A DNA stretch of 64,000 nt from an uncultured virus (IMG/VR IMGVR_UViG_2806310702_000001) (Duplodnaviria; Heunggongvirae; Uroviricota; Caudoviricetes): IMG/VR virus record IMGVR_UViG_2806310702_000001; one strand, written 5' to 3'. The first letter of the stretch is position 1. The number at the start of each line of letters is the position of its first letter. Positions 11,604-33,762 of the stretch are shown piece after piece. A program made the translations under genes and the position numbers. A model generated the notes under the pieces. It worked only from the letters and a program-made list of their open reading frames with translations, was not told the DNA's origin and made no database searches.

Positions 11604-11648
11604 TTGATAAAGTCGTTTATGAAAAATAATTCATTGGAGGTATTAATT

Positions 11649-12362: not shown

Positions 12363-12431
12363 TATCTATATCTATATACTCTATAAGATCTTCGATTCTA
12401 CAGTTAAAGAATTTGCATAACTGTATATCAT
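12355..12431 (-). pseudogene. 3' fragment of a second XRE gene
   Basis: Reads QLCKFFNCRIEDLIEYIDIDKN*, versus LCKFFNCKINDLIEY in 10303-10512. Confidence 0.7.
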
Positions 12432-12434
12432 ATA

Positions 12435-12494
12435 GAAATTAAATTAAATAATTTTTAAAAAACTATTGCAAAAATATAATTATAGGTATATAAT
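12435..12494 (+). promoter_or_regulatory. sigA promoter with upstream box
   Basis: Box 12435, TTGCAA 12466, 17 bp, TATAAT 12489. Confidence 0.65.
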
Positions 12495-12557
12495 ATATTT
12501 AAAGTTAAAAAATATATTAATCGCATATAACAAAATTAAATTAAGGTATTAGGAGGT

Positions 12558-12800
12558 TTGATTATGGGTGCTTTAAAATTGCAAGATATGTATTATCCTT
12601 TACCAATAGATCAAAAGGGGGTTTGTAAAAGAAATAAAAAAGTGGTAAAGAGATATAAAGTTAGAAAAAGAATAGTTACTACTCAAAAAACAAAAGATGT
12701 GTTATATAAGTTTTTGGGTCTACCTATAGGATTATCATTATTCACAATGTTAATATATGGTTTCTTTTATATAGGTAGCGACTGCGTTAATTACATATAA
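12558..12800 (+). CDS. Small basic protein with a C-terminal TM helix
   Basis: AGGAGG RBS; hydrophobic FLGLPIGLSLFTMLIYGFFYIG. Confidence 0.65.
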   Translation: MIMGALKLQDMYYPLPIDQKGVCKRNKKVVKRYKVRKRIVTTQKTKDVLYKFLGLPIGLSLFTMLIYGFFYIGSDCVNYI

Positions 12801-12988
12801 AATGGGGTATGGGATATGTTAATGAAAATATTGAGCAAAATAAAAAGACATTTTAACAAATATAAAGTTGAGCAAGATTATTATATAAGTAGATTAAAAA
12901 ATAAAAATAATTATGTAGATAAGGTTTGTTAAATTGTTATATCACTTTATTGCAAAATTAAATTAATATATTAAAAGGAGGAATTAAA

Positions 12989-13861: not shown

Positions 13862-13921
13862 TTCCTATGTATCTGCATTAATATTTATAAATAAAATTTT
13901 ATACAAGGAGCGTGATGTATT

Positions 13922-16900
13922 ATTAAATACACATATAAAAATGAAACAATACCAACAGATAAAAGAAAAGAAATAAACGAAAAAATACTTTATCTTATCA
14001 ATAATAATTTATGTGAAAAATATGGCATAACTCAAAATGATGTGTATAACTCGTATACAGGGGACGGAGGACTACACGGCTTAAACTTTAAAGATTTTAA
14101 TAACTTTTATTCTTTTACTAAAGCAAAACAAGAGGTAGAAAATGCTCAATTCTTTACACCACCAGAATTAGCACAATATTTAGTAAATATATTGAAACCT
14201 AGTAAACATGATTTAATTTTAGATTTAACTTGTGGACATGGATCATTTTTTAATTTTCTACCTAATGAATTTAACGTATATGGCAATGAATTAGACATGA
14301 AAGCCTATAAGGTAGCTAAGTATTTATATCCTAATACAATCCTTACACAGGGAGATATGAGGGAATATAGTCCTCATATAAAATTTGATTTTGTGATAGG
14401 GAATCCACCTTTTAATTTAGATTTACATTATAACGATAGAAATGTATTATCTCAAATGGTTTATATTCAAAAATCATTAGGTTTATTAAAAACGGGTGGT
14501 ATATTAGCTTTAATAGTACCTAATTCATTCCTAAATGACGATTTTAGCAATAAATCTGATATAGAGTATATGGATACCAATTTCAATTTTATATGTCAAA
14601 TAGGGCTAAATAATAAAGAATTTGAGTATTTAGGCGTAAATAACTTTGCAACTAAAATAATAATATTCCAAAAGAAAAGTGAATATTTACAGGATAAAAA
14701 ATATAATTTAGAAATGTTGAATAAAATTGATCCTGATATAGTCTATCAAAAATATTTATTACCTACATATCAAGAAAAAGAAAAATTAAAAAATAAAATT
14801 TTCTTAGAAAATGCGAACTTAAATTCTGAGGACTTAGACAAAGAGTTCCAAGATAAAGTTAAGAAACTGCTGTTTGATATAAAAAGAACTAAAAGTATAA
14901 GTAATAAATACGCAGAATGTAAATTGTATTTAGATAAATATTATAATCAAAAACAACCTGACAGCATGGATTATAAAGAGTGGCAAAAAATAAGAATTAC
15001 TAAAGAAAAGGTTATAAAATATTTTAAAAATGTACTTAGCAAACAACATATAAGAGAAATAAATAAAGTAGAATTAGTTAAATGGAACTATGGGTTAAAA
15101 TTAAAAGGATATTCAGAAAAGACTAAATTATATGTTAGAAGTTTAAAAAATAATTTTATAAGTTTTGATGACATGATTATTAATAGTAACTATCCTTTTG
15201 AAGATAAAAAATATTATAAATTATACATAAAAAAGAAAAAAGAATATGAGAAACAAAGCAAAAGTTTTGAGAATATGCAAGAAGATAAAAATATTAAAAT
15301 TTGGTTAGATGAATTGGTTATAAAGGATTATACAAAAAAAATAGACATTAGATTAAATGATGTTCAGAAAAATATTGTAAATAAAATGCTACAAAAGAAA
15401 TATGGATATATCCAAGCCGAACAAGGAAGTGGAAAAACTTTAATGTCTATATGTTACGCTTTACATAGAAAACAATTTACGAATATTAAAAATGTATTTG
15501 TGGTCGCTCCAAGTATTGCAATTAATGGCACATGGATAACTACGTTACAAGATTATAAAATACCTTATATAGTATTAAATAAATTTACAGATATTAAGAA
15601 TATTAAAAAAGGAGATTTTGTTCTAGTTACTTTTAATTTATTAATCAAGTTACAAAAAAGAATTAAAAAATATCTTAAACAAATCAACAAAAATTATGTA
15701 CTAGTTGTTGATGAAGCTGATTCTATTTGTAGGATTGATAGCAAAAGAACTAAAGCAACTCTAGGGACATTTAAAAAGGCTAGATATATTGAACTCTTGA
15801 GTGGTACGATGACCAGAAATAACATTACAGAAGCATATACTCAATTTAACCTACTGTATGGATCAAGTATTAATTTTTTAACTAGGAACGAATACATATT
15901 AGAGGAAGATGAAAAAACTAAAGAATTACATGAAAGACAAAATGAATATTATTTAAAGCCATTTCCAGAATATAAAAAAGGACATAAATTATTTATGCAA
16001 TCTTTCAATCCTCAAAAAGTTACAGTTTTTGGAGTAGGACAAAATACACAAAATATATACAACTCAGAAATTCTAAAAGAATTGATAAATAAAACTATAA
16101 TTACAAAAACATTCGAAGAAGTTGTAGGTAAAAAAATATATGAAATAATACAACATACTGTTAAATTTAACGATTCTGAAAGGGAATTATATTATAAAGC
16201 TATAAATGAATTTTATAGTATGAAATATTTATTTACTAGTACAGGAAACCCTCGAAAAGACCGAATGATGGAGATAATACAACAAATAACTTTATTATTA
16301 AATATCTGTCAACATCCTCAAACTTATAGGGAATATAATCATTTAGAAACTCCTAATAAATATAAAAAGGTAATAGAATTATTAAATAAATGGAACGATG
16401 AACAGGTTTCTATAGGTTGCAGGAGTTTAAAGGAAATTAACTGTTACACTCTTTTAATTAAAAAAAATTTTCCAAACAGAAGGCTGTTTATTATAACAGG
16501 TAGTATTCCTATGGAAAGAAGAAGAGAAATAATAAAAGAATTAAAAAATTATAAAAATGGAATATTGTTGTGCACTCAACAAAGTCTATCATCTTCAATT
16601 TCTATAGACTATATAAATAAAGTAATAATAACTGCGTTGAGCTGGAATTTCTCTAGCTTGTCACAATTCTTCTTTCGTTTTATAAGATATACAAGTACAA
16701 AACATAAGGAAATACATTTTATAACTTATCAAAATTCGTTAGAATCTAATTTGTTAGGCTTAATTATGGCTAAGGAAAATTTAACGATGTTTATGAAAAA
16801 TAAAGATGTGACAGATGATGAACTATATGAGAAATTTGGAGTCGATTTTAATTTAATAGATATGCTGTTGAGTAAAGAAAGAGACTCTGAAGGTCATACA

Positions 16901-16936
16901 CATATTGTAAACTGGGGTAATCAAGAGATTAATTAA
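13922..16936 (+). CDS. N6-adenine DNA methyltransferase fused to an SF2 (SNF2-like) helicase, DarB-like architecture
   Basis: QFFTP, LDLTCGHG, GNPPF; AEQGSGKT, DEAD, SGT; frame open upstream of 14042 to a probable ATT start after AAGGAGCGTGAT. Confidence 0.8.
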   Translation: MKYTYKNETIPTDKRKEINEKILYLINNNLCEKYGITQNDVYNSYTGDGGLHGLNFKDFNNFYSFTKAKQEVENAQFFTPPELAQYLVNILKPSKHDLILDLTCGHGSFFNFLPNEFNVYGNELDMKAYKVAKYLYPNTILTQGDMREYSPHIKFDFVIGNPPFNLDLHYNDRNVLSQMVYIQKSLGLLKTGGILALIVPNSFLNDDFSNKSDIEYMDTNFNFICQIGLNNKEFEYLGVNNFATKIIIFQKKSEYLQDKKYNLEMLNKIDPDIVYQKYLLPTYQEKEKLKNKIFLENANLNSEDLDKEFQDKVKKLLFDIKRTKSISNKYAECKLYLDKYYNQKQPDSMDYKEWQKIRITKEKVIKYFKNVLSKQHIREINKVELVKWNYGLKLKGYSEKTKLYVRSLKNNFISFDDMIINSNYPFEDKKYYKLYIKKKKEYEKQSKSFENMQEDKNIKIWLDELVIKDYTKKIDIRLNDVQKNIVNKMLQKKYGYIQAEQGSGKTLMSICYALHRKQFTNIKNVFVVAPSIAINGTWITTLQDYKIPYIVLNKFTDIKNIKKGDFVLVTFNLLIKLQKRIKKYLKQINKNYVLVVDEADSICRIDSKRTKATLGTFKKARYIELLSGTMTRNNITEAYTQFNLLYGSSINFLTRNEYILEEDEKTKELHERQNEYYLKPFPEYKKGHKLFMQSFNPQKVTVFGVGQNTQNIYNSEILKELINKTIITKTFEEVVGKKIYEIIQHTVKFNDSERELYYKAINEFYSMKYLFTSTGNPRKDRMMEIIQQITLLLNICQHPQTYREYNHLETPNKYKKVIELLNKWNDEQVSIGCRSLKEINCYTLLIKKNFPNRRLFIITGSIPMERRREIIKELKNYKNGILLCTQQSLSSSISIDYINKVIITALSWNFSSLSQFFFRFIRYTSTKHKEIHFITYQNSLESNLLGLIMAKENLTMFMKNKDVTDDELYEKFGVDFNLIDMLLSKERDSEGHTHIVNWGNQEIN

Positions 16937-20107: not shown

Positions 20108-20347
20108 ATATATTAAACTCCTTGTATAAAGTTGTTTTCTAAAATTTTCTATAATAATTATAACATACTTTCCACAAATAATAGAATAGTAAAAATAATA
20201 AAATTAAATTAAGATATTTTATATATCATAGATATGTAATTATAATCATTTATAAAATTATTGCACAATAATACAATATATGACATAATATTGACTAACT
20301 TCTATTTTAATTATACAAATATATATATAACATTTGGAGGAAATTTT

Positions 20348-21649
20348 ATGAATTTACTTGATATTTTTAAAATTAAAAAATTTAAACAAGATATAGAAAG
20401 ATTAACAAAAGAGAATTCTGAGCTGAGTAAAATAAAACATACCGTTGAACAATTGAAGTATTTAGATATGGAAAAAGAGATAAATTCACTTATATCTAAA
20501 AAAGAAGATTTAAATAAAAAAATTAATAATCTAAAAAATGAAGAAACTAAATATAAAAATCAAATTGATACTTTACAAAAATCTATTATTGTATTAAAAG
20601 ACGAAGATTTATTACAGTCTTTCGGATTTTATGAACCTAAATATAACTTAATGGATTCAGAAAAATACAAAGTAAGATTATCTGAAATTCGAGATAAACA
20701 AAAAATAATGGTTAAAAATAAAACTGCTGTAAATTATTATGATGAATGGACATTGAATGATAGCAAGGTTGAAGGTAGAAAAATGAATAATGATAATATA
20801 AAACTTATTATCAGATCATTTAATAATGAATGTGATGCCAGTATAATAAAAATAAAATTTAATAATATAGATTCTATAGAAAAGAAAATAAAAAAAGCTT
20901 TTGAGGTATTAAATAAATTAGGCAAAAGAATGAAAATAAGCATAACCCATGATTATTTAAATTTAAAAATTGAAGAACTATACTTGGCCTATGAATACGA
21001 AATAAAGAAACAAGAAGAAAAAGAAGAACAACGCAGAATTAAAGAACAAATACGTGAAGAGCAAAAAGTCTTAAAAGAAATAGAATCAATGAAACAAAAA
21101 ATTGAAAAAGAAGAAAAACATTTTAGACAAGCTATAGACGAATTATCTTTAAAATGTGAGAATGCTTCAGAAGAAGATAAGCTAAAATATAAAGAAAAAA
21201 TGAAAGAATTGCAAAGTCAATTAGAAGCACTAGAAAAGGATAAAGAAGACGTTTATAATCGTGAACAAAATACTAGAGCTGGTTATGTATATGTAATATC
21301 AAATATAGGTTCATTTGGTGAAAATGTGTATAAAATAGGCATGACAAGAAGATTAGAGCCTACTGACAGAGTTAAAGAACTATCAGGAACATCTGTTCCT
21401 TTTGCTTTTGATATACACGCAATGATTTTTAGTGAAGATGCTCCTAAATTAGAATCTAAATTACACGAAGTATTTAGAGATAAAGAGGTTAACAAAGTTA
21501 ATCATAGAAAAGAATTTTTTAAAGTTTCTCTTGAAGAAATTGAAAAAGTAGTAAAAGAAGAGTTCGATAAGCCTGTGGAATTTATAAAATTAGCACAAGC
21601 TGAAGAGTATAGACAATCTTTAGTAATAGAAAACAATGTAACTGCTTAA
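20348..21649 (+). CDS. DUF4041 + T5orf172/MUG113 (GIY-YIG-like) protein
   Basis: RSFNNECD, AGYVYVISNIGSFGENVYKIGMTRRLEP; ATG after GGAGG. Confidence 0.9.
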   Translation: MNLLDIFKIKKFKQDIERLTKENSELSKIKHTVEQLKYLDMEKEINSLISKKEDLNKKINNLKNEETKYKNQIDTLQKSIIVLKDEDLLQSFGFYEPKYNLMDSEKYKVRLSEIRDKQKIMVKNKTAVNYYDEWTLNDSKVEGRKMNNDNIKLIIRSFNNECDASIIKIKFNNIDSIEKKIKKAFEVLNKLGKRMKISITHDYLNLKIEELYLAYEYEIKKQEEKEEQRRIKEQIREEQKVLKEIESMKQKIEKEEKHFRQAIDELSLKCENASEEDKLKYKEKMKELQSQLEALEKDKEDVYNREQNTRAGYVYVISNIGSFGENVYKIGMTRRLEPTDRVKELSGTSVPFAFDIHAMIFSEDAPKLESKLHEVFRDKEVNKVNHRKEFFKVSLEEIEKVVKEEFDKPVEFIKLAQAEEYRQSLVIENNVTA

Positions 21650-22051
21650 AACTGTTATTTTATAGAGATTTTTATATATACTAAAATTTAATTCTAAAGA
21701 GGTCTATAGTAAAAAAGATATAACAATATTAAATATAAGCCATATTTAAGCCTAAGAGCCTTTTAAATTATAAAAAGGTATCTTAGGTTATTTTAGTGTT
21801 TAAAATCGAATTTAAGGGTAAATAAGGCTAAAATAAAAGGTATATATGGATAACGATATAAATATATGTTTTAGATAGAAAAAATATGAGTAAAAAACAA
21901 CGATAAAAGTGATTAATAAGAGTGTACAAAAACACGTTGCAAATATTGTAGTATATTCTAACTGAATATATACAAGTATATATTACTAAAAGAATGTAAT
22001 AGTATATAGAATTGCTAGAGGCGTTGATATGACTAGGGTGTAGAGGTGTTT

Positions 22052-22210
22052 GGTGATTAAAAAGCATGTAGTTGGTGATTAAAAAGCTTGTGGATATTTT
22101 AAAACGGTGAGTGAAAAGCTTGTGGATAGTGATTAAAGGGCTTGACATTGGTGATTAAAAAGCGTATAGTAAATTTAACAAATAAATTTACTTGTGGATA
22201 GTGTGGATAA
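22052..22210. promoter_or_regulatory. Iteron origin with DnaA boxes and rep promoter
   Basis: GGTGATTAAAAAGC-type iterons at 22052, 22074, 22106, 22128, 22150; four TGTGGATA boxes, perfect TGTGGATAA at 22202; TTGACA 22142-17-TATAGT. Confidence 0.85.
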
Positions 22211-22257
22211 GTTATGTTAAGCAACGATATATCTACTGTGGAGGTGTGCATAACTCG

Positions 22258-23433
22258 TTGGGAAACAACAATTTGATAAAAAAGCAAAAAGCGAAAGTTT
22301 TTCGATACAATGCGGGAATAGAAGGAGCTGTTGAAGGGAATACGGTACAATTGCCTTTCGTAGCAGAATATAAGGGCGATAGGCAAACTTTAATGGAGTA
22401 TATTTGGTATACAAAAGAGAACAATCAATTAACAAAAAGGGGAATTGAAGTATCTGGACACGGCGAATTTGGAGTACCCACATTAAGAGAATACGATGTT
22501 TTAGTTAGTTTGCAAAGATTATTTTTAAACGAAAAAACAGACCATGGAAGGTGTGAATTAAGAACAGAAGACGTGACAGATGAATATTTGACTATAAACT
22601 TTACAATATATCAATTGGCTAAAGAAATGGGATATAAATCTCCTAATAGCTTAGTTTTAAATAATTTAAGACGATCTATAAAAATACTGCTAGCTACTAC
22701 AGTGACAGGGAAATATAGTGGTGGAATATATGACATAAAGAAAAAAAAGTATGTTGAAGACGAAATATCATTTCATCTGCTAGAATCTGCACATAGTCGT
22801 ATTGAATATGAAGAAACGGAGAATAATGAATTAATCGAAGTAAATAATAAGCTTAGGATCAAACTAAGTCGATTTACATACAATCAAATGATTAATGATT
22901 ATAAATTATTTTATAATAAAGGATTGTATTTAAAAACAAAGAACTTGATGGCACGAAAATTATATCATTTAGCATTGCAATGGAAGGGAAGTAACAATTT
23001 TGCGTGGGCAAATATAAATACTCTTATGGAAAAAATACCCATGATAGAAAATCAAGAAAAATACAGAAAAAGATATATAAAAAAAGCACTGAAAATACTA
23101 AATGATAAAAAAATATTAAAAATTAAATATGATGATCAAAATAAAGATTTGGTTTATTTTATATTCAACGACAGTGAAGAAACTGGCTTTTTACTCACCA
23201 AATATAATAAGTTTTCTGAAATACGAGATGCTTTTTATAATTTAGGGTTTACATTAGATGAAGTGGATGAATACTTAGATATACAAGAAATTAGATACAT
23301 TCAGGCTCTATTAAGATATATGGATTTGCAATTAAAAAGAGATAATATAGAAAAGCCTAAAGAATATTTTAAAAAATGCTTGGAGCAACGTATAAAGCTA
23401 GATGGAAGGTTTTTTAATCAAATTGGTGATTAA
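22258..23433 (+). CDS. repA: Plasmid-type replication initiator protein
   Basis: GVPTLREYDVL, FTIYQLAKEMG, ARKLY are Rep-like; flanked by iterons; TTG start after GGAGGTG. Confidence 0.75.
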   Translation: MGNNNLIKKQKAKVFRYNAGIEGAVEGNTVQLPFVAEYKGDRQTLMEYIWYTKENNQLTKRGIEVSGHGEFGVPTLREYDVLVSLQRLFLNEKTDHGRCELRTEDVTDEYLTINFTIYQLAKEMGYKSPNSLVLNNLRRSIKILLATTVTGKYSGGIYDIKKKKYVEDEISFHLLESAHSRIEYEETENNELIEVNNKLRIKLSRFTYNQMINDYKLFYNKGLYLKTKNLMARKLYHLALQWKGSNNFAWANINTLMEKIPMIENQEKYRKRYIKKALKILNDKKILKIKYDDQNKDLVYFIFNDSEETGFLLTKYNKFSEIRDAFYNLGFTLDEVDEYLDIQEIRYIQALLRYMDLQLKRDNIEKPKEYFKKCLEQRIKLDGRFFNQIGD

Positions 23434-23557
23434 AAAGCGTGTTTTGAGATAACTAATATTATATATTCGGTGATTAAAAGGCGTGTAATAGGACAACGAA
23501 GAGCCTAGAAAACACATAAATCAGTAGCAATATATTAAATACACGCCTTTTAATCAC
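23425..23557. repeat. Downstream control iterons (incA-like)
   Basis: Iterons at 23425 (over the rep stop codon) and 23469; inverted copy 23540-23557. Confidence 0.8.
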
Positions 23558-23584
23558 TTTTAAAAATAAAAGGGAGGATAATAA

Positions 23585-24352
23585 ATGTTTTTATATATTT
23601 TAAATATGGATAAAGAAAAAATGATTAAAATAGGAATAGCAACAAGCATAGAAAGAATAAAACAACATTTAAGAACTTATAATAATCTTATAGATTTAGA
23701 AGAATCTTATATAGTTACGGCTAAGGATGATAATACTATAAGAATGCTAGAGAGACAATTTTTAAATGATTATAAAGAATTTGCAATTGATAATATTAAA
23801 TTTAGTAATTTAGATGGAGCTACAGAACTAAGAAGAATTGAAATTTTAAAGGATATATTAGAAGATATACAGTATAAGAGCAATAAATTAAAATTAAAAG
23901 ATATAAAAATTAAAAAAGGTATAATAATAGAAAACAAAACTCAAAGTCGATCAAATAATAAGGTTAATAATAATAAGAAAAAAATTAATATAACCAACAT
24001 GGATCATTTACTTAACATAGGTCAAATAGAAGCGTTCATTAGGCGTTTAAAAAAATATAAAGATAATATCGTTAGTATTCATTATTCAAACGAGAATGTG
24101 GTAGAGCGAATAAATTTTGAATTTAAAGATGAAAATGAATATGAAGGTATTGGTGTTATTAGCTTGCATGCTCAAAAAGGTGGTTGTAATTTGATTAATT
24201 ATGAAGAACATTTTTTAGATGATGATAGTATTATATTAGAATTATATATAAATTCCAAAAACAAGAACGGTCATAAAAAAGATGGATTAAATTATTATAC
24301 AAATATGTTTTTTGATAATATACAAGAAGTTTTAAAGAGTGTTTGTGTATAA
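23585..24352 (+). CDS. GIY-YIG/T5orf172-like domain protein
   Basis: FLYIL...IKIGIA...RIK...LE...GATE. Confidence 0.6.
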   Translation: MFLYILNMDKEKMIKIGIATSIERIKQHLRTYNNLIDLEESYIVTAKDDNTIRMLERQFLNDYKEFAIDNIKFSNLDGATELRRIEILKDILEDIQYKSNKLKLKDIKIKKGIIIENKTQSRSNNKVNNNKKKINITNMDHLLNIGQIEAFIRRLKKYKDNIVSIHYSNENVVERINFEFKDENEYEGIGVISLHAQKGGCNLINYEEHFLDDDSIILELYINSKNKNGHKKDGLNYYTNMFFDNIQEVLKSVCV

Positions 24353-24402
24353 TAATATAGAACGAACAATATTTATATAGTATTTATCTATTTATCATAA
24401 AC

Positions 24403-24462
24403 AAAATTAAATTAAATATTTTCGAAAAAAGTATTGACATAGTTTGGGTATCATGGTAAACT
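24403..24462 (+). promoter_or_regulatory. sigA promoter with upstream box
   Basis: Box 24403, TTGACA 24434, 17 bp, TGnTAAACT. Confidence 0.7.
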
Positions 24463-24670
24463 TATAAATGTAGACGGAAGCAGATATTATTGTCAACTAC
24501 TCTAAAGAGTATATATTTTTATTGTTTATGAATTATAAAATTAAATTAAAACATTTTAAGAGTTCGATAACGGTAAATAGTTGTGCAAAAGCAGTATATG
24601 TCGAATAGAATTTATTGACAACACAATATTTGCAGGAATATAATAGAAAATGTAGAAAGGAGATACTAAA

Positions 24671-24808
24671 ATGGAATTTAACAAGTTAATATTAACATCA
24701 ACAATGGCTCATTTCAAAAGTGGAATCAATGGAAAAAATCAAAATACTTTTAGAGTTCCTCCTATATCAACTATAGTTGGTATATTAAAAAACATATGTA
24801 TTAATTAA
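24671..24808 (+). pseudogene. cas5: N-terminal fragment of type I Cas5 (45 aa)
   Basis: MEFNKLILTSTMAHFK...TFRVPPISTIVGILKNI fits the Cas5 N-terminal signature; AAGGAG RBS; stop lies inside CRISPR repeat 1. Confidence 0.7.
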
Positions 24809-24950
24809 ACTATATGTGTTGTAGGTTTTTTAATTGGTGCAAGTGTATCTATTTGTATTAATTAAACTATATTAGTTATAAAGACTTGTATGTTAGAATT
24901 TATGAAGGAAACGTTAAATATGTATTAATTGAACTATATTAGTTATAAAT
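24798..24950 (+). CRISPR. CRISPR mini-array, 3 repeats and 2 spacers, type I-B-like
   Basis: 29-nt repeats GTATTAATT(A/G)AACTATATTAGTTATAAA(G/T) at 24855 and 24922, degenerate copy at 24798; spacers 28 and 38 nt. Confidence 0.75.
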
Positions 24951-24981
24951 GAGTCATTAAAATCTATCTTTTATGATGATA

Positions 24982-25041
24982 GAAATTAAATTAAAATATT
25001 TCAAAATAACCATTGACATAAATGGAAAACAGTAGTAGAAT
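24982..25041 (+). promoter_or_regulatory. sigA promoter with upstream box
   Basis: Box 24982, TTGACA 25013, 17 bp, TAGAAT. Confidence 0.75.
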
Positions 25042-25148
25042 AATAAATGTGGAAAGAAAATATAAGGTTAGTATGGGTTGGAACATTTTGTTCAAGCCCT
25101 TTACATAAAAATATTAACAAAATTAAATTAAACAAGAGGAGGAATTAT

Positions 25149-26156
25149 ATGACGAATAGTTTAATGATTTTTGAAGGCTCAGAGTTAGAAATTTTAACAA
25201 AAGAGGATATAAATTTTGAGTTTGAAGGCACAGTTTTATTCAATGGGAAACAAGTTCAAGGTATATTAGGATATTCAACATCGAGCAAGACGATTATTAG
25301 ATTAATTAGAGAAAATCAAAAGTATAAGGTGAAAAATTCAGATGTGCTAAATCAGCACTTCCGAAAATTGAATAATGCAGGTGAAACATTTATCACTGAA
25401 AAGGGTGTAATGAAACTTATTATAAATAGTGATATGCCCAAAGCAGATGAATTTGAAGAAAAAGTGTGGGATATAGTAACTAAAGTTCATCAAACTGGAA
25501 AATATGATTCTACAGAAGAACAAATTAAATTGATACAAGATAAAAAGGAACGAGAACTAAGTTTAGGATTGTACTCTTTGCAACAAGCGTTAAAAGTTAA
25601 TCCGAGTGATTATAGTTTATCTATATTAGTAAATCAAAAAGATCAGGAGTTAAAGTTGTATAAGCAAGAAAAACAATTAGAACAAATTCAAAATGGAATA
25701 GAAGAACTCGATAGTAAGATTAAAAAAGCTACGGTACTAAGAGAAGGAGATAAAAGTGCTAAAAACATAGCTAAATATTTCAAAGTATATTCCAAAAATA
25801 ATAAGCCACATAATCAATTTGCGGATAAAATAGCTAAAGAATTAGGATTTTATATCAATCCGATAGGTAATGCAGGCTATCAAGATAAATATATTAGTAT
25901 AAATTTAACTAATATTGGAGGAACTACAGTATCAGAAATAAAATATAGCAGGGAAGCACTAGAATTAATGAAAGAGTATATTCGTACATATGGTTTGCAA
26001 GTGAAAGCTCAATATGGTAAAAGGGGGTTAAATAAAGGTAAAATTATAAAAGCTGAGATGATATTTAAAAATGGAGAACATATTTTTATAAATGAAAATA
26101 CATATAACATATATTCAACTAGATCAACAGTTTCTTATGATATAAAGGGAATTTAA
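25149..26156 (+). CDS. Bro-N domain protein
   Basis: FITEKGVMKLIINSDMPKADEFEEKVWD...TGKY; ATG after GAGGAGG. Confidence 0.8.
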   Translation: MTNSLMIFEGSELEILTKEDINFEFEGTVLFNGKQVQGILGYSTSSKTIIRLIRENQKYKVKNSDVLNQHFRKLNNAGETFITEKGVMKLIINSDMPKADEFEEKVWDIVTKVHQTGKYDSTEEQIKLIQDKKERELSLGLYSLQQALKVNPSDYSLSILVNQKDQELKLYKQEKQLEQIQNGIEELDSKIKKATVLREGDKSAKNIAKYFKVYSKNNKPHNQFADKIAKELGFYINPIGNAGYQDKYISINLTNIGGTTVSEIKYSREALELMKEYIRTYGLQVKAQYGKRGLNKGKIIKAEMIFKNGEHIFINENTYNIYSTRSTVSYDIKGI

Positions 26157-26420
26157 GCACATATAATACATATTAAAATTCAGATTAAACGAAAGATTAT
26201 CATATTTAATCAACAAAAGATAAAAATATTAGAAATATGAACAGAGGTGAAATTTGTGAAAGTGAATGAATCTAAGTTGCAAGAATACATATTAAAAATA
26301 GCGAAAAAATATAAAGAATCTACAAAAGAAGATAGAATTAAAGTAGGACAAAGGATTAATTGTCATATAGATTAGTAATTAAAAACAAAATTAATATCAA
26401 TAAGAAAGAGAGGAAGAAAA

Positions 26421-27339
26421 ATGAATAAAGAACAGTTGTTAAATATTATGAAGGTATTAGCAAACAATAAAATTGTAGAGGCTCATAAGAAAGATTTAGT
26501 TAATTTGCATGGGGATACTAATACACCACAAGTAACGAGATTATTAGATATATTAGAAAAGCAAGGGTATATAAGTACAATAGAAAAAACTAAAAATTTA
26601 GGTAGAGGTAAATGGACTCCATATAAGTGGAAAATTAATGAAAATGTTAATATTCCTAAAGATAACAACCGTGACAACGTAAAGTTGACAGATGTTATTA
26701 ATAAAAATACTAATGACTATGAAAATGTGATTAATATATTCAATTATCAGCAAGAGAAATTCAATAATATTGATATTGATGTGATAGACACAGAGAAGGG
26801 CAAAGTAATACCTGTATCTAATATTTATAATGCTTTAGGACTAAGTAGACAAGCAATTTATCAATTATTGGATAGAAATAAAGAGTTGTTTGATGGAATG
26901 ATATTTAATATAAATATGGGAGATGGTGATAGAATATGTGTAAATAAAGAAGGAATAATTGGATTATTGATGAAAATGCAGTATGAAAGATTAAAGGAAG
27001 ATAAAAAAACAATTGGTATTGCAATTTCAAAAATGGTGCATGAAAACTTTAAGCGAACTTGTGTCTAATGGCAAGGTAGAATTAAAGAATCAAGAACAAC
27101 AAGAAGTTAAAAATAACATAGGTAGCACAACAGGATTGAGCGATAAAGATATAGATACGTTATTTGGAGATATAGAAGAGTTATTATACAATAAATTACA
27201 TATATTACATAAGGTTGTCAACGAATTAAAAGATGAGAGAAATAATTGTAAAATCATAGCTGAGTCTGAAAAACAAAGAAGTGAAAGACTGATAGCTAAG
27301 ACAGTAGAATTAAGAGAAAAGATTTATAGTATTAGATAG
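26421..27339 (+). pseudogene. wHTH + antirepressor-like protein split by a +1 frameshift in an A7 run
   Basis: ORFs 26421-27068 and 27013-27339 join (EDKKQLVLQFQKWCM) if one A is removed from 27003-27009. Confidence 0.65.
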
Positions 27340-27378
27340 TCAATTAAAAAATTAAATTAAATTTGGAGGAAAGATAAA

Positions 27379-27540
27379 ATGGCAATTAGTTCAAGAATTA
27401 AAGAGATGGCAAAGCAACAATTTTTATTAAAAAGAGATAACGTAATATCTAAAGCAACTCGAAAAGCAAAACAGGAACAGTATGAAATTCTATTTGGTGG
27501 TCATTCAGCTAAAATGCAAGGTAAAACAATACATATATAA
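27379..27540 (+). CDS. Small basic hypothetical protein (53 aa)
   Basis: GGAGGA RBS; MAISSRIKEMAK... Confidence 0.55.
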   Translation: MAISSRIKEMAKQQFLLKRDNVISKATRKAKQEQYEILFGGHSAKMQGKTIHI

Positions 27541-27591
27541 ATTGAAATATACTTTTAACGGTAACAAACATCCATTCTTTTATAATTATAT

Positions 27592-27728
27592 AAAATTAAA
27601 TTAAAAATAAGTATTGACATTAACACTCCTATTTGATATACTTACAATAAGTTAAGGAAAGAAATAAATAAATGTTAGCGAAAATAAATTAAAAAAGTGT
27701 TGACAGTGTAAAAAATAAGTGGTAAAAT
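27592..27728 (+). promoter_or_regulatory. Tandem sigA promoters
   Basis: Box 27592; TTGACA 27614-17-TATACT; TTGACA 27700-17-TAAAAT. Confidence 0.75.
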
Positions 27729-27764
27729 TAAGTTAATAAATAATTAAAGAGGAGTGGATGTTAA

Positions 27765-28427
27765 ATGTTAAAAGGATTAGAAGCTTTAAAAGCAGTACAG
27801 AGGAATATGGAAATTAAGAGAGGTGATGTGTGGATAGTCGATATACCAAAAGAAGCTAGAGAAATTTTTGGGAATAATATTCAGATAGGGCTAAGACCTT
27901 GTATAATAATTTCAGGCGAAGGTAATAACAGACATGCCAACATAGTAAATATATTACCTATAAGTAGTAAAATAAATAAGGTGTACCCACAACATACTGA
28001 AATCAATACATATGACGAATTAAGAGATTGTGGGTTATCTAAAAGAAGTATTATTTTATCTGAACAAATGATGACAATAGACAAAAGTAAATTAATAGAT
28101 AAACTAGGAAGAGCTAATTCAAAATTAATGGAAAGAGTAGAAAAAGGATTAGATGTTCAACAAGGTAAAAATTTAAGAGATGTATCAAGAGGTAATTATA
28201 TACAAAATTTCAATAAAGAAAATTTTAGTTTAAAAAAAGCGTTTGACAAAATAACAATGCTAAATAAAGCTAAAACATTAGATGCAGAATTGTATATGTA
28301 TCTTTATTCAGAACTTAAAGAATATTGCGAAAGTTATAAGATCAAATATTATGAAGTGGTGAGTAAATATAACAATAGTAGACTTAATTCTGCAATGATA
28401 AATGATATGGTTTCTGTAAGTTGTTAA
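27765..28427 (+). CDS. PemK/MazF-family protein with C-terminal extension
   Basis: KRGDVWIVD, QIGLRPCIIIS..NN, ILPISS, EQMMTIDKSKL. Confidence 0.85.
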   Translation: MLKGLEALKAVQRNMEIKRGDVWIVDIPKEAREIFGNNIQIGLRPCIIISGEGNNRHANIVNILPISSKINKVYPQHTEINTYDELRDCGLSKRSIILSEQMMTIDKSKLIDKLGRANSKLMERVEKGLDVQQGKNLRDVSRGNYIQNFNKENFSLKKAFDKITMLNKAKTLDAELYMYLYSELKEYCESYKIKYYEVVSKYNNSRLNSAMINDMVSVSC

Positions 28428-28540
28428 CTATTGTACACAGTAGCAAAAGACGGCAAACTAAGGAAATTGGGGGAAGTAAAATGATTAAATGTAGGAGTAA
28501 TAGACACCCCTCGGATAGACAACATATAGACTCAACTATA

Positions 28541-28606
28541 TCTAGGTGGCTATTCTAATTTAATATAATAGTAAATAAAAATGTTAAATTAGAATAGCCA
28601 CCTAGA
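28541..28606. repeat. 23-bp perfect inverted repeat
   Basis: TCTAGGTGGCTATTCTAATTTAA / TTAAATTAGAATAGCCACCTAGA. Confidence 0.9.
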
Positions 28607-28637
28607 CGAAAATTAAAAACAAAAAGGAGAGATTAAA

Positions 28638-29294
28638 ATGAAACTAATAATAACTGATTATATAATTAAACAATATAGAAAAGAAATCAAAACTGATAAA
28701 AAGCTAGATGATGTAATTATAAGGAAGAAAATAGAAGCTTTAGTTGAAGTATCAAACAGAAATGTTATTAATAATAAATGTATATATAACTACCAAGGAA
28801 ATGTAATAATAGTGGAAATTCTAACAAATAAAGTAACAGAAGCTACTTTTGTATACTTAAAAAATACACCAGAATTAAAAGGTGCGTATATTAAAGTAGG
28901 ATTAACTGAAAATGGAAATAAACTGGTTTATAGTAATACGTTACCTACGGCAAAAGAAGTTAAAAAAATAATCAAAAACAACAAATATAATATAAAATTC
29001 ACATTAGACGAAAAGCAATTGTATCCATTACATTTCGTTTCAGGAAATGATGAATTTGTAGCTAGATTAGATCATAACAATCTATTTGAGGTTAAACATT
29101 TGAATGATAAATTCTTCTTAAAAGGACATAATAAAAACAAGCTACATAGTCACTTGCAAAGAAGATATGGTAAGTTAACAGACATGTTAGAATCCATTCA
29201 TAATCATGCTAGATTTCAATTAGAACAAGATTATAGAGATAGACAATTATTAAATGTATTAGGAATAAATAATATGAGCATGGTCAACTGTTAA
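28638..29294 (+). CDS. Hypothetical protein
   Basis: 218 aa, AAGGAG RBS. Confidence 0.75.
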   Translation: MKLIITDYIIKQYRKEIKTDKKLDDVIIRKKIEALVEVSNRNVINNKCIYNYQGNVIIVEILTNKVTEATFVYLKNTPELKGAYIKVGLTENGNKLVYSNTLPTAKEVKKIIKNNKYNIKFTLDEKQLYPLHFVSGNDEFVARLDHNNLFEVKHLNDKFFLKGHNKNKLHSHLQRRYGKLTDMLESIHNHARFQLEQDYRDRQLLNVLGINNMSMVNC

Positions 29295-29460
29295 TTAAGA
29301 CGTAAAATGAGAAATAAAATAAAAAATGTTATACTATTAAGTTAAAATATGTTTATTTTTTAATTAATTTGTGGTATTATATAAGAGAAGCCATAATATT
29401 TATTTAAAAATAATCTTCGGCAAGATTAAAATAGATAATATGTAACGGAGGAGAATAAAA

Positions 29461-30867
29461 ATGAAAATAAAAAGTCGAGATGAATTGGGAAAAATAAAAA
29501 ATGAAATAGACGAATTGTTGGAAGAAGAACTTCCTAAAATGTATGCTTTGTATCCTAAAATGGTATATGATGTAGCAGATGTTTTAGAAGATAAAAACAT
29601 AATGATAGGAACTGTAAGTAGTTTATTTGGAGGAATAAATCCAATATACAAATTAGAGGAAATCAAAGAGTTAGGAAGCTTTTTGAAGGCAGTTTATGAA
29701 GTTGGGAAAAGATATGCTAAGAACAACATATTAGTTATTCCTAATTTAGAGAAATTGAACCCAAAGGATTTTTACACTGAAACAGAAATTAACGCAATTA
29801 ATTTATATAAGAAAGATATAATAAAAGAAAGTAATATAATGAAGTTATTTGTAAGAAAAAATGCAGAAAATCATTATGTATGTGCTTATATATCAATGGT
29901 AGAGTATATAGATTATTATAAAAGAGGATTAATAAATTACAATCCTAATACACAAAGAGAAACAACTAAAAAGGTTGTTGGTGGTCAAATAAATGAATTT
30001 ATTACAATCTATCAAAAAAATATCAATAAAATATATGAAAATCTAAAAAATGATAAGTTTGATCCTAATATGTTGACTCTAAATATTAGAGATAACAAAG
30101 ACGATAATCCTCAATTTGATGATGGAGATATGAATATTGGAGATTATGGATGGCTAAAAATTAAAGTTGACAGTAAAGAACGTTCTTACGTTGATTTACT
30201 CGATGGTCAACATAGAACGTCCGCACAAGAAAGATATGTAGAAGAATATCCAAATACAGATAAATATAATATGTTGAGTATATTTGTATTTAACGAAGAA
30301 CAAGCTATTCATCATATCATTCAAGAAAACTCAGGTACAAAAATTGATGAAACATCTTTACAAAGACGTGATCCTGATAACAAAGGTGTTGCGATAGCAA
30401 AGGAATTAAAAACGCTAAGCAAAGAATTAACAGGTCAAATAGCAGATGACTTAATTGAGTTGACACAACATAAAAAGTATACAGATATAGTAACATTAGG
30501 TTCAGCTATAAATAATTGTTTTACAATTGATGGTAGACGAGAATATAAAAAAGTTAAAGAATATTTAAGGGATTTCTTTGATGTTGTCATAGATTGCTAT
30601 AGGGATTATTTTAATAAAGATAATTTACAACCTAAAGAATTATTTTATAGAAAAAACACCTTTGTAGCCTTTTGTTATATTGCTAAAAAATTGTACCAAA
30701 ATGATAACTGGGAAGACTTGGCGTTTGACATCTTTGATACATTACAAATAGAAGAAATTGAAAGTATATCAAGCAATAGAAAGATATTAAAGCCGAGTGA
30801 TTATAAAATTATATCTAATAAAATTCAGAGTATACTAGAGAAAAGCGAGGTGGCAATAGATGGCTAA
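29461..30867 (+). CDS. DGQHR/DndB-like (ParB superfamily) protein, SPbeta YopQ-like
   Basis: YNPNTQR and LLDGQHR motifs; overlaps the next gene. Confidence 0.75.
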   Translation: MKIKSRDELGKIKNEIDELLEEELPKMYALYPKMVYDVADVLEDKNIMIGTVSSLFGGINPIYKLEEIKELGSFLKAVYEVGKRYAKNNILVIPNLEKLNPKDFYTETEINAINLYKKDIIKESNIMKLFVRKNAENHYVCAYISMVEYIDYYKRGLINYNPNTQRETTKKVVGGQINEFITIYQKNINKIYENLKNDKFDPNMLTLNIRDNKDDNPQFDDGDMNIGDYGWLKIKVDSKERSYVDLLDGQHRTSAQERYVEEYPNTDKYNMLSIFVFNEEQAIHHIIQENSGTKIDETSLQRRDPDNKGVAIAKELKTLSKELTGQIADDLIELTQHKKYTDIVTLGSAINNCFTIDGRREYKKVKEYLRDFFDVVIDCYRDYFNKDNLQPKELFYRKNTFVAFCYIAKKLYQNDNWEDLAFDIFDTLQIEEIESISSNRKILKPSDYKIISNKIQSILEKSEVAIDG

Positions 30868-31966
30868 AAAAAGACAATATAAAAGAAGATTTGTTACAGA
30901 AGAAAAAATGTATAATGAAGATATAAAAAATAGATTTATAGATTATTTCTACGATAACGAACAAACTAAAGAAAGTATAAAAAGAACATTTTATTTAACA
31001 AATTGTTATATGGAATCAGATTTAGATAAAGATGTCTATGATTTCAATAAATATGAGATAGAAAATTTATTAAAGTCATTTAAAGCCACATCGGAGGGTA
31101 GCCTAGGAGTAAGATTAGCTCATTTAAAGAAATATATCGATTTTTGTATTAGCATGGGTATTAGAGCTAATGCAATAAATTTCTGTGATAGTATAACAAA
31201 TTTAAAAGATTATGTTGTTAGAAATATGGATAAATATAAATATATAACTAGAGAACAGTTATATAATATTTGTGAAACTATACCTAGTGCACAAACGGCG
31301 ATAATTTTTATACTAGCATTTGAAGGTATAGTAGGTAAAGATAAATGTGAAATGCGAAATTTAAAAATTGAAGATGTAGATTTTGAAAATAGAACAATTA
31401 CGGTACGTGCATATGATGAAGTTAATCCACGTACAGGTGAGATAGTTTATAAGCCTGAAAGGGTATTAAAAAATGTAGATTCAAGAACTTTACAATATAT
31501 ACAAGATGCTATAAACGAAACAGTTATGGTTTTACCAGAAAATAAATCCTTTACTAGTCCAGAAATAGAAGTAGAAAAAATGCGAGGAGCTAGAGATGAG
31601 CGCAATAGGATTTTTTATCTTGTTAAAACAGATTACGTATTAAGAAAATCTGCATCTAAAGGGGAGGATACTGAGTATAGCGAGGAACTAAATGAACCTA
31701 TTCCATCTCCTACAATCCAGACTCGAATTTATAATGCTATAAATTTCTTTGTGGGTAATGAAAGTGAAGAAATGTATTTTGTAAAAAAACTTAATGCTAC
31801 TTCTTTAGAACAAAGTGGTATGATAGAAGAATTAGAAAAAATTGAAAAACAAAAAGGTGATCTAAAAGTATCTGATTTTAAATATGTAATAGAATCTAGG
31901 AATAAAAAGACGTACTATTCATTAAAAAAATTATGGGATCATATCAAAAAAGAGATGGATAATTAA
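30860..31966 (+). CDS. Degenerate tyrosine-recombinase-fold protein, SPbeta YopR/MrpR-like candidate repressor
   Basis: ILAFEGIVGKDKCEMRNLKIEDVD (box I without Arg); TSLEQSG in place of HxLRHS. Confidence 0.7.
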   Translation: MAKKRQYKRRFVTEEKMYNEDIKNRFIDYFYDNEQTKESIKRTFYLTNCYMESDLDKDVYDFNKYEIENLLKSFKATSEGSLGVRLAHLKKYIDFCISMGIRANAINFCDSITNLKDYVVRNMDKYKYITREQLYNICETIPSAQTAIIFILAFEGIVGKDKCEMRNLKIEDVDFENRTITVRAYDEVNPRTGEIVYKPERVLKNVDSRTLQYIQDAINETVMVLPENKSFTSPEIEVEKMRGARDERNRIFYLVKTDYVLRKSASKGEDTEYSEELNEPIPSPTIQTRIYNAINFFVGNESEEMYFVKKLNATSLEQSGMIEELEKIEKQKGDLKVSDFKYVIESRNKKTYYSLKKLWDHIKKEMDN

Positions 31967-31984
31967 GAATAACAAAAAATAAAA

Positions 31985-32016
31985 TTATAAGGAGTTAGCA
32001 AATTAACTCCTTATAA
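31985..32016. terminator. Stem-loop
   Basis: TTATAAGGAGTTA / TAACTCCTTATAA. Confidence 0.6.
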
Positions 32017-32058
32017 AAAAGAAATATATAAAAATAAATTAAAGTGAGGGAAATATAA

Positions 32059-32430
32059 ATGGAAAGTAGATTAGATAGAGAATTAATTATAAATGGATGT
32101 AAGGAAAGAGAATTAAAGGTACAAGCAATATATAATAAAAAAGGCAATATATTTGATTGCAGACATGAAATAATTAAAACAAGAAAATTACAAGATGACT
32201 TGAGTTTAGAACAATTCCAAGAGGATTTTAATGAAAACAACATAGATAAATTAAAAATAGATTTTGAAAAATTAGATTTAATACATAAAAGACAAAATGA
32301 AATACATACAATATTACATATAATGCAAATTAATAATTGGACAATTAAGGATATTTACAGGGAGTATGAAAGTGGTTACACATGTAATGTTTTATCATTA
32401 TTATTACAACCAAACGAAAACATTTGTTAA
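32059..32430 (+). CDS. Hypothetical protein
   Basis: 123 aa, GAGGG RBS. Confidence 0.65.
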   Translation: MESRLDRELIINGCKERELKVQAIYNKKGNIFDCRHEIIKTRKLQDDLSLEQFQEDFNENNIDKLKIDFEKLDLIHKRQNEIHTILHIMQINNWTIKDIYREYESGYTCNVLSLLLQPNENIC

Positions 32431-32487
32431 CACTGCTAAAACATTATATAATATAAAAATAAATTAAATAAGAAAGGGCGTTTTAAT

Positions 32488-33762
32488 ATGAAAAATATTT
32501 ATAAAATTATTACTGAAATAGCTAGTACATCTAGCAGAAATGAAAAGGAAACTATATTACATAATAATAAGGAAAACGAACTATTATCAAGTATATTTCA
32601 ATTTATATTTAATCCATATATAGTAACAGGAATTAGTAGTAAGAAATATAATAAATTCAAAGATATTAATTCAAATAGTAGTATAACAAGCATAGAAGAA
32701 ATGATGGAATATTTAAAAGTTAATAATACAGGTAAGGATACGGATATTAAAAGCATTATTGGATTTATTAATAACCAAGATGAAGAATTGAGAGGCTTAC
32801 TGAAACAAATAGCAACCAAATCTTTAAAAATAGGTGTAACTGCAAAAACATTAAATAAAGTGTATGGAAAAGGATTTATACCAGAATTTAATGTCATGTT
32901 GGCGGATAAATATTTTACTAATCAGAATAGGATCGACGGTGAATTTATTGTTACAACAAAATTAGATGGTGGGCGTGCAGTAACAATAAAAGAGAAAAGA
33001 GATGCTAAATTTTTTACTAGACAAGGACAAACCATTGAAAACATGGTAGAAATACAAGAAGAAGCTAAGTTATTACCTGACAATATGGTTTACGACGGGG
33101 AGTTGCTTTTAAGAAATGATAAAAAGTTGGTTAGTAAAGATTTATACAGGGCTACTATGAAAGAAACTCGTAAAGATGGAATTAAAAAGAATTTAATATT
33201 TAATTGTTTTGATATAATCCCGATTAATGATTTTATGAATGGGAAATGTAAAATTCCTTGTATAGAAAGAAAAAATCAACTGCATGAAATATTAAGTGGA
33301 TTGAATTTGGAACATATAGTAGAAGTACCTATGTTGTATGTAGGAACGGATAAGAATGAAATTATTAAATTACTAGATGAGGCTAGAAGTAGGGATGAAG
33401 AAGGCGTTATGGTAAATTTAAGCAATGCTCCTTACGAATGTAAAAGAAGCAAAAGTCTATTAAAAGTTAAAGTTATGCAATCAGCAGATTTAAAAATAAT
33501 TGGATTTGAAAAAGGTGAAGGTAAATTATCTAATACATTAGGAAAAATAGTTGTAGACTATAAAGGCAATGAAGTTAGCGTAGGATCAGGATTTTCAGAT
33601 CAAGATAGAGAATATATATGGAATAATCAAACTGATTTATTAGGGAGAATAGTAGAGGTGCAATATTTTGAAGAAACTCAAAATCAAAATGGTGGTATAT
33701 CTGTAAGATTCCCTGTGTTTAAGGGAATAAGACACGATAAAACTGAACCAAGTTACTATTAA
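32488..33762 (+). CDS. ATP-dependent DNA ligase
   Basis: KLDGGR, YDGEL, FDII, EGVMV, LLKVK, VGSGFSD, RFPVF. Confidence 0.95.
   Translation: MKNIYKIITEIASTSSRNEKETILHNNKENELLSSIFQFIFNPYIVTGISSKKYNKFKDINSNSSITSIEEMMEYLKVNNTGKDTDIKSIIGFINNQDEELRGLLKQIATKSLKIGVTAKTLNKVYGKGFIPEFNVMLADKYFTNQNRIDGEFIVTTKLDGGRAVTIKEKRDAKFFTRQGQTIENMVEIQEEAKLLPDNMVYDGELLLRNDKKLVSKDLYRATMKETRKDGIKKNLIFNCFDIIPINDFMNGKCKIPCIERKNQLHEILSGLNLEHIVEVPMLYVGTDKNEIIKLLDEARSRDEEGVMVNLSNAPYECKRSKSLLKVKVMQSADLKIIGFEKGEGKLSNTLGKIVVDYKGNEVSVGSGFSDQDREYIWNNQTDLLGRIVEVQYFEETQNQNGGISVRFPVFKGIRHDKTEPSYY

Follow-up and report, generated by a model that had tools for sequence, protein, structure and literature searches.

Why would a phage that has lost the cas genes of its own CRISPR module retain a very short array behind the cas promoter? 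This question is raised by a locus at positions 24615-24950 of a 64,000-nucleotide (nt) stretch of DNA from an uncultured virus of the Caudoviricetes (IMG/VR record IMGVR_UViG_2806310702_000001), which is referred to in its entirety as the window. An earlier note on this DNA had described the locus as a promoter-linked cas5 stub fused to a mini-array, and had proposed that it borrows host Cas proteins, encodes a regulatory RNA or is simply decaying. In the present analysis, the locus was found to be the product of a deletion in a type I-B module, and the only spacer between two intact repeats was traced to the cas3 gene of the same type I-B family, a target that the earlier note had not foreseen. 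Our tentative answer to the question, rated at slightly less than an even chance, is that the locus would serve as an orphan "anti-cas" mini-array carried by a phage, by analogy with those known from Escherichia coli type I-F.

The history of the locus was read from a comparison with Clostridium phage c-st, a type C neurotoxin-converting (botulinum-toxin-carrying) phage, which is collinear with the window on both sides of the locus at 96-98% identity. Upstream, window positions 21646-24797 correspond to c-st 11041-14193 (98% identity); the last 398 nt ahead of the junction (24400-24797), which contain the promoter, are 98.5% identical to the c-st region preceding cas5 and extending into it. 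Downstream, the 3' flank of the array (24951-25255) corresponds to c-st 20275-20580 (96%), where the same flank follows the c-st array, and positions 26257-32496 correspond to c-st 21426-27659 (96%). Between these matching flanks, c-st carries cas5 (214 amino acids, aa), cas6, a cas8b-like gene into which an insertion sequence (IS) has split, a cas7-like gene, a leader and a 3-repeat array. In a three-way alignment that included c-st, the similarity to cas5 ended in the window after codon 42, and the next base was the first base of a repeat, which places the junction at 24797-24798. Measured against c-st, about 5.9 kb are missing, and the leader of the c-st array is gone. Judged from these alignments, the locus is the remainder of a plasmid- or phage-borne partial type I-B module (cas5-cas6-cas8b-cas7-array) in a c-st-like toxin-converting phage, in which a deletion of about that size fused cas5 codon 42 to the array. 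The surviving parts are the operon promoter with its ribosome-binding site, a stub of 45 codons and three repeats, of which one is defective and the others are intact. The earlier note had supposed just such a collapse of a phage-borne cas operon, with the array left behind the cas promoter, and had proposed a search for the undeleted locus in relatives; c-st (with the IS-split cas8b), pCN2 and pCLG2 carry cas5-cas6-cas8b-cas7 together with an array. The window and c-st share the downstream flank of the array but none of the spacers. It follows that the arrays turned over once the lineages had separated, and the right-hand end of the ancestral deletion cannot be placed exactly. Farther downstream, a stretch of about 1 kb (25256-26256) within a gene with a Bro-N domain has no match in c-st, with both sides of it being 96% identical; this stretch looks like a mosaic replacement.

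Signals for expression are located on the upstream side of the junction. The former cas5 (operon) promoter (24615-24644; plus strand, as are all features of the locus described here) consists of TTGACA (24615-24620), an 18-nt spacer and TATAAT (24639-24644), and agrees with the consensus at 12 of 12 positions. Among 16 promoter-like sites between 24300 and 25200 (compared with 9.6 ± 2.8 in shuffles) it ranked first, it is the sole full-consensus site upstream of the array, and no terminator-like site was detected in the same interval. The array is thus likely to be transcribed from the old cas5 promoter. A ribosome-binding site, AAAGGAGA (24656-24663), was read from the sequence; its GGAG (24659-24662) is followed 8 nt further by the ATG at 24671. 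No Rfam family matched positions 24400-25150 at E ≤ 1.

The stub open reading frame (ORF; 24671-24808) comprises 45 codons, of which codons 1-42 derive from cas5 and the last three, with the stop codon, from the first repeat. Its peptide matched the NCBIfam model TIGR02593 (Cas5 N-terminal domain) at 30.4 bits (cut-off 17.8; E 2.4e-7), remained under the cut-offs of Pfam Cas_Cas5d (14.8 bits; cut-off 23) and TIGR01895, and aligned with the full-length cas5 of c-st and three plasmids. With 42 cas5 codons left, compared with the ~214 aa typical of the family on group III plasmids and phages, it does not represent a full-length Cas5. The exact 45-aa stub was recorded on one contig. Promoter, ribosome-binding site and reading frame were therefore located where the earlier note had placed them, including the end of the frame within the first of three 29-nt repeats, and the profile search bore out its Cas5 N-terminal signature. 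Its claim that the window holds no other cas gene also agreed with our scan, in which 55 of the window's 65 ORFs of at least 90 aa gave no match to the Cas models of PADLOC (E ≤ 1e-5), a result that covers the window and not the rest of the phage or the host genome. The ten ORFs outside the scan included seven short ones within or across longer ORFs and three short stand-alone ones (132-413, 5725-6003 and 21828-22148).

The array contains three 29-nt direct repeats with start-to-start distances of 57 and 67 nt, and all three copies of the 18-nt repeat core in the window are located there. Repeats 2 (24855-24883) and 3 (24922-24950) are intact, with one and no mismatch, respectively, to the 28-nt family pattern, and a weak hairpin was predicted for both. 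Repeat 1 (24798-24826) is defective: its first 18 nt are canonical, its last 11 nt are off-family, six mismatches separate it from the pattern, and it is unable to form the hairpin. The three repeats and the 28- and 38-nt spacers announced in the earlier note thus proved exact in position and length, but repeat 1 matches the family over its first 18 nt only. The repeat-1 unit is 10 nt short, and can be read either as a mutated repeat followed by a 28-nt spacer (spacer 1, 24827-24854) or as a repeat without its last 11 nt followed by a 39-nt spacer that includes the odd tail. Under either reading, the RNA of spacer 1 would lack a normal 5' handle, given how type I CRISPR RNAs (crRNAs) are made, and spacer 1 is probably dead. 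Spacer 2 (24884-24921; 38 nt) is the sole spacer between two intact repeats. At least two direct repeats of ~29 nt with unique spacers are present, as in a genuine CRISPR array, spacer 1 being shorter than the ~35-40 nt expected and repeat 1 partly canonical. The repeats belong to the family found beside the type I-B genes cas5-cas6-cas8b-cas7 in c-st and in the group III plasmids p2BKT015925 and pCN2/pCLG2 (0-1 mismatches for repeats 2 and 3), which supports their earlier assignment as clostridial type I-B-like. With two spacers in a viral genome and no Cas match among the ORFs scanned, the unit has the composition of a viral mini-array.

The origin of spacer 2 was revealed when eight related records of phages and plasmids were searched with every match listed. 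The spacer matched p2BKT015925 78763-78800 at 34 of 38 positions (E 2.7e-9 for that record), within a gene annotated as Cas3, in whose product an HD domain scored 49.6 bits and a helicase core 255 bits. When 1.2 Mb (the eight related records and the window, with arrays masked) were scanned without gaps, the second-best position scored 27, and none of 20 shuffled spacers rose above 29 of 38. The match begins at the first base of cas3 codon 365, in coding-strand sense, and all four mismatches (spacer positions 10, 24, 30 and 33) are synonymous, from which it follows that spacer 2 stems from another allele of cas3. Directly 5' of the match in p2BKT015925 stands CCT. The motif of clostridial type I-B systems is CCN, and CC accounts for 2.2% of the dinucleotides in the related elements searched. 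Among 58 spacers of the repeat family, two have a match of at least 34/38, and the other one is preceded by CCA; a possible further CCA case appears in a published table (PMC8473940). Two to three cases thus underlie the assignment of the protospacer-adjacent motif (PAM). On the evidence of these alignments, spacer 2 was taken from the cas3 helicase-nuclease gene of its own type I-B family, next to a CCT motif. The spacer search against phages and plasmids suggested in the earlier note was therefore productive for spacer 2, with a PAM, but not for spacer 1, whose ungapped matches in the same 1.2 Mb, whether taken as 28 or 39 nt, were no better than those of 20 shuffles.

Searches were also made on a larger scale. 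Record-best searches with the spacers against all phages and plasmids returned the repeat alone, the cas3 match having emerged in the per-match listing. Neither spacer exceeded chance among 50,697 phage records, and the target that was found is a plasmid-borne cas3 rather than a related virus. Exact spacer 2 had no match in IMG/VR; a codon-degenerate pattern of the 13-aa target peptide had none in genome, viral or metagenome contigs; and the Cas3 protein, used as a query for related loci, found none in genome or viral contigs. A 601-nt cas3 segment recovered p2BKT015925 alone among plasmids and nothing among phages, so that DNA of the exact allele is visible solely as a contig piece of the public run X5. 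In the opposite direction, a spacer of p2BKT015925 agreed with the window at ~5669-5706 (minus strand) in 30 of 38 positions, with a register shift, in an intergenic A+T-rich stretch; this match was judged too weak for mutual targeting between the p2BKT015925 type and the window phage.

Public runs were compared by aligning the contigs of four runs to the locus, a comparison that cannot show absence; run X1, in which the whole stretch is present, is possibly the window's own source. In run X5, a contig of 1282 nt matched spacer 2 at 38/38, with no repeat adjoining. Its 30-nt loose ends, read by eye, are ~80% identical to the flanks in p2BKT015925 cas3, and translate to the sequence of P0008, a Cas3 homologue that shares 81% identity with the Cas3 of p2BKT015925 over 672 aa. 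Spacer 2 thus matches a cas gene of its own family at 34/38 in p2BKT015925 and at 38/38 in run X5, as is characteristic of orphan anti-cas arrays. At the PAM place, the X5/P0008 allele has ACT (Thr364) instead of CCT (Pro364Thr), whereas Pro364 is kept in 10 of 11 aligned Cas3 homologues (the nine best of 120 listed and two named C. perfringens proteins). Thr364 at the PAM codon of the exactly matching allele may represent an escape change, a suggestion that stems from one low-depth contig. A 303-nt piece of run X4 matched spacer 2 at 37/38. Both X4 and X5 continue past 24797 into an intact cas5, as does c-st. Contigs of runs X2 (16,279 nt) and X3 (29,670 nt), from two other studies, span the window junction, including 35 nt of its cas5 side, and each has both spacers; the alignments do not reach upstream of 24728 and 24754, and hence stop short of the promoter. 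X2 and X3 have 6 and 8 other letters over 244 nt (~2.5-3.3% local divergence), with no difference listed within spacer 2. A separate piece matching spacer 2 was seen once each in X4 and X5 and in neither X2 nor X3, a pattern that is not evidence, since contigs cannot show absence.

The locus has relatives in various states of completeness. Partial type I-B loci beside the replication gene of toxin phages and plasmids have been described in C. novyi sensu lato, together with one complete type I-B locus carried by a further toxin phage (Le Gratiet et al. 2021; PMC8473940). The authors also report that adaptation genes and cas3 have been lost, the latter being absent from pCLG2 and pCN2, and that IS elements have inserted. 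In our comparison, pCN2 and pCLG2 likewise lacked cas3, and their cas5, cas6, cas8b-like and cas7-like genes were all whole and followed by an array of the same repeat family. In p2BKT015925, cas5, cas6 and cas3 (HD and helicase) are whole, while the cas8b-like gene is fragmented and the cas7-like gene frameshifted (L013 6413-8710); in c-st, the IS-split cas8b-like gene lies at L001 7653-11073. An independent cas5 stub occurs on plasmid CP063961 (NZ_CP063961.1; L002 8033-8610), where the gene is broken at about codon 64, leaving 68 aa, and is followed by a 6-repeat array. The 27 nt between the break and the array are unlike any leader and resemble a spacer remnant, and the five spacers of this array had no target in the eight elements searched. 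The 68-aa stub protein of this type was recorded on 12 contigs. The two stubs differ in their end points and have unrelated tails.

Published protospacers in the cas genes of pCLG2, p2BKT015925 and a toxin phage indicate that spacers against the mobile type I-B cas module are recurrent in these clostridia. All seven pCLG2 protospacer rows (five distinct places) in Table S6 of PMC8473940 fall within the cas5, cas8b-like and cas7-like genes, and the cas genes (L015 5002-8656) make up 6.8% of that plasmid. One pCLG2-matching spacer is also present in Table S12, and further rows match the p2BKT015925 cas6 and the cas7 of another toxin phage. The flanks of the published cas-gene protospacers have TCN on one side in six of six presumably chromosomal spacers, and the seventh has CCA; these TCN flanks suggest that chromosomal type I-B systems target the mobile cas module. 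The role of cas genes as spacer targets is not discussed in the passages of that paper that were consulted, and the two spacers and the junction allele of the window are absent from its supplement.

From the deletion and the origin of spacer 2, both of which the alignments give directly, we infer how the RNA might act. The old cas5 promoter would transcribe the stub together with the array, and the phage would make no Cas protein from the locus. Cognate Cas6, Cascade and Cas3 may come with an incoming phage or plasmid, or may be assembled from co-resident plasmids. Cas6 would cut the transcript at repeats 2 and 3, yielding one canonical crRNA, which would be loaded by Cascade and would guide it, with Cas3, to the cas3 gene of the encoding element. 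An armed rival element would then cut or block its own nuclease gene; where Cascade is present without Cas3, as on pCLG2, binding only would be expected. The phage would need no Cas protein of its own, because the element that bears the target also brings the machinery. That the crRNA acts as such a booby-trap guide, with an incoming complete type I-B system loading it and destroying or silencing its own cas3 to the protection of the phage and its co-resident elements, is possible, though less likely than not. The idea in the earlier note that borrowed Cas proteins serve competition among mobile elements gains support in so far as spacer 2 derives from a rival-borne cas3.

A number of observations weigh against the proposed anti-cas role. 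Transcription and processing of the array are predictions from the sequence. The plasmid p2BKT015925 is not itself an armed rival, its cas8b and cas7 being broken, and the sole 38/38 allele found has ACT and not CCN at the PAM place and might escape cutting. The window repeats differ from the plasmid type at positions 9, 10 and 17, and the cross-compatibility of Cas6 and Cascade is putative. Cas content was judged from the window, so that the Cas proteins met by the phage lie outside the comparison. Finding spacer 2 unchanged in both X2 and X3 carries no statistical weight, with about one change expected in each. Spacer 2 could also be an ordinary spacer against a rival plasmid, located in cas3 by chance. 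Finally, the type I-B family is in decay in several relatives (cas8b in c-st, cas8b and cas7 in p2BKT015925, the missing cas3 in pCLG2 and pCN2), and a further remnant would therefore be unsurprising.

This last point leads to the main rival, the simple decay that the earlier note had listed among its options: the locus may be an inert scar, left by neutral decay or by survival of autoimmunity, with an array that has merely not yet been lost. We consider this a serious possibility, somewhat on the doubtful side. The several forms in which the family decays, including the second stub and array of CP063961, would fit it, as would the already defective repeat 1, the lack of a target for spacer 1 in the elements searched and the predicted nature of the array's expression. 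In the autoimmune version, an ancestor would have taken the spacer from its own cas3, self-targeting would have been lethal for the replicon, and only cas-deleted variants would have survived. Deletion of whole cas cassettes to escape self-targeting is documented (PMC6990116), and the same rival reading has been raised for the E. coli arrays (PMC2886076). However, c-st is also without cas3 and yet without spacer 2, which agrees better with acquisition from a foreign cas3 than with uptake from a cas3 of the phage itself. Mere persistence is likewise less easily reconciled with the retention of a perfect consensus promoter, with two independent deletions that both kept the promoter fused to the array, and with the occurrence of the junction allele in three runs, each from a different study (one of them maybe the source of the window), with both intact repeats present and spacer 2 unaltered. 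The scar and the booby trap are not mutually exclusive, as a scar can later serve as a trap.

It is improbable, in our view, that the locus is an ordinary viral mini-array working with resident Cas proteins, either the Cascade of a pCLG2/pCN2-type plasmid or another resident type I-B system, whose crRNA would exclude or transcriptionally block rival plasmids or phages and for which the location in cas3 would be incidental. Mini-arrays that make use of host Cas proteins have been described (PMC11656645), four Cascade genes are intact on pCLG2 and pCN2 beside a near-identical repeat, and strains with up to three type I-B loci have been reported, as have spacers of toxin phages that are directed at other toxin phages (PMC8473940). 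The Cas proteins resident in the window's host lie, however, outside the data compared, and binding alone would be possible without Cas3 but of uncertain effect within a coding region. Moreover, the cas3 gene makes up 2.0% of p2BKT015925, which gives a prior of ~2% for an incidental match, and the location of all listed pCLG2 protospacers in cas genes suggests that these genes are not incidental targets.

The use of repeat 1 and the short spacer as a regulatory or decoy RNA, which in the manner of CreR, Cracr or Racr would sequester Cas proteins or, through partial pairing, direct them to a cas promoter, was among the proposals of the earlier note and gained no support from the searches; we regard it as very improbable. 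It is suggested by anatomy only, namely a degenerate repeat followed by a 28-nt spacer, and the arrays of pCN2 (L014 8711-8857) and pCLG2 (L015 8699-8845) likewise begin with a degenerate repeat and a 26-nt spacer. Viral RNAs of this sort exist, and type I-B targets are predicted for some (10.1101/2024.10.29.618823). Set against this, PAM-proximal matches of spacer 1 extended over no more than 10 nt in the window's 10 kb or in four cas loci, the best of them not at a cas promoter, while 30 shuffles reached up to 12; from an RNA of the CreR/Cracr type, pairing over at least 9 bp with a cas or toxin promoter would be expected. The 26-nt spacer of pCLG2 gave a best promoter-type seed match of 6 nt, with shuffles reaching up to 13. 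Spacer 1 had no ungapped match above shuffles in the 1.2 Mb of related elements, as noted above, and the tail of repeat 1, the would-be 5' handle, is not conserved.

Least of all, and hardly credible, would the 45-aa Cas5 N-terminal peptide itself be the product, as a dominant-negative poison of cognate Cascade assembly: its start codon, ribosome-binding site and promoter are intact and the second, independent stub is widespread, but keeping the promoter inevitably meant keeping the stub, the two stubs differ in where they stop and have unrelated tails, folding or binding of the peptide would be hypothetical, and a 2024 review (PMC11656645) indicates that fragments of Cas proteins have apparently not been recruited by viruses as inhibitors.

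The reading of the locus as an orphan anti-cas mini-array draws on a precedent in E. coli, in which a short orphan type I-F array has spacers that match cas1, cas3 and csy2 of its own subtype; its carriers lack the matched cas genes, and the array was proposed to stop invasion by elements with a working system (Touchon and Rocha 2010; PMC2886076). The window array resembles these arrays in its very small size, in the lack of a Cas match among the window ORFs scanned and in a spacer that matches a cas gene of the same subtype, cas3 being among those matched in E. coli. The action proposed is also the same, an incoming cognate system being turned on its own genes, and so is the rival reading, in which a self-targeting spacer forced the loss of the cas genes. 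In contrast to the E. coli arrays, the window array is of type I-B, is located on a toxin-converting phage and not on a chromosome, was made by a visible deletion that fused it to the cas operon promoter, has one usable spacer and is known here from sequence alone. The orphan E. coli type I-F anti-cas arrays were reportedly the subject of an experimental paper by Almendros and co-workers in Nature Microbiology in 2016.

Other known systems share some of these features. Viral mini-arrays, such as those of Saccharolobus portogloboviruses, have 1-2 spacers and no cas genes in a viral genome, rely on Cas proteins from elsewhere and carry repeats that belong to a CRISPR family circulating among the same hosts; most of the spacers are directed at related viruses (PMC11656645), whereas the target here is cas3, and the window array is a remnant of the phage's own cas locus rather than a captured host unit. 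The partial type I-B loci of PMC8473940 belong to the same locus family, lie likewise next to the replication initiator gene and share the repeats of the window array; the fusion of the cas5 stub to a mini-array and both of its spacers are new relative to the supplement of that paper. Like the window array, the Racr, Cracr and CreR RNAs (PMC10651486; 10.1101/2024.10.29.618823) involve repeat-derived phage RNA that uses the Cas proteins of another element and acts against CRISPR-Cas. Phage crRNA-like RNAs have been found to repress cas promoters with short, partly pairing spacers (10.1101/2024.10.29.618823), and the spacers of the Racr, Cracr and CreR class pair partly with cas or toxin promoters, or are lacking, in contrast to the 38-nt spacer of the window, which has a PAM and lies within the cas3 coding region. 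Plasmid spacers against the Cas genes of other megaplasmids are mentioned in a megaplasmid preprint. In the open-access literature, no report of a phage-borne orphan array aimed at cas3 was found.

Plasmids and phages commonly carry orphan arrays, and for the question of what these are used for the window array offers a concrete case: a phage-borne orphan array with a single usable guide aimed at the nuclease gene of its own CRISPR family. It also illustrates that the most informative spacer can be located in an array too small for the usual detection limits, with fewer than three good repeats. Should the proposed anti-cas role prove correct, CRISPR systems on mobile elements would themselves be targets, and the outcome would help decide which toxin phages and plasmids can share a cell in the clostridia of animal botulism. 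On the booby-trap reading, the recurrent fusions of promoter, stub and array, the Pro364Thr change and the many published cas-gene spacers would record an arms race of CRISPR against CRISPR between the mobile carriers of clostridial toxins.

Two further features of the window were observed. The 13-mer AAATTAAATTAAA is present at 24 sites, all on the plus strand, compared with 0.49 expected. Near the locus (24404-24416, 24538-24550, 24983-24995 and 25120-25132) it is intergenic and stands just before promoter-like sites or ribosome-binding sites, and it may be a regulatory or transcript-processing signal of the phage early region. In addition, defence-type genes cluster around the replication region (14042-16936, 20261-21649, 27765-28427, 33812-37000 and 49639-50079). 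They include a methyltransferase/helicase fusion, a PD-Lambda-1 homologue (563 bits), a PemK/MazF toxin, a PglX/type IIG-like enzyme (1177 bits) and a DarG-like macrodomain protein.

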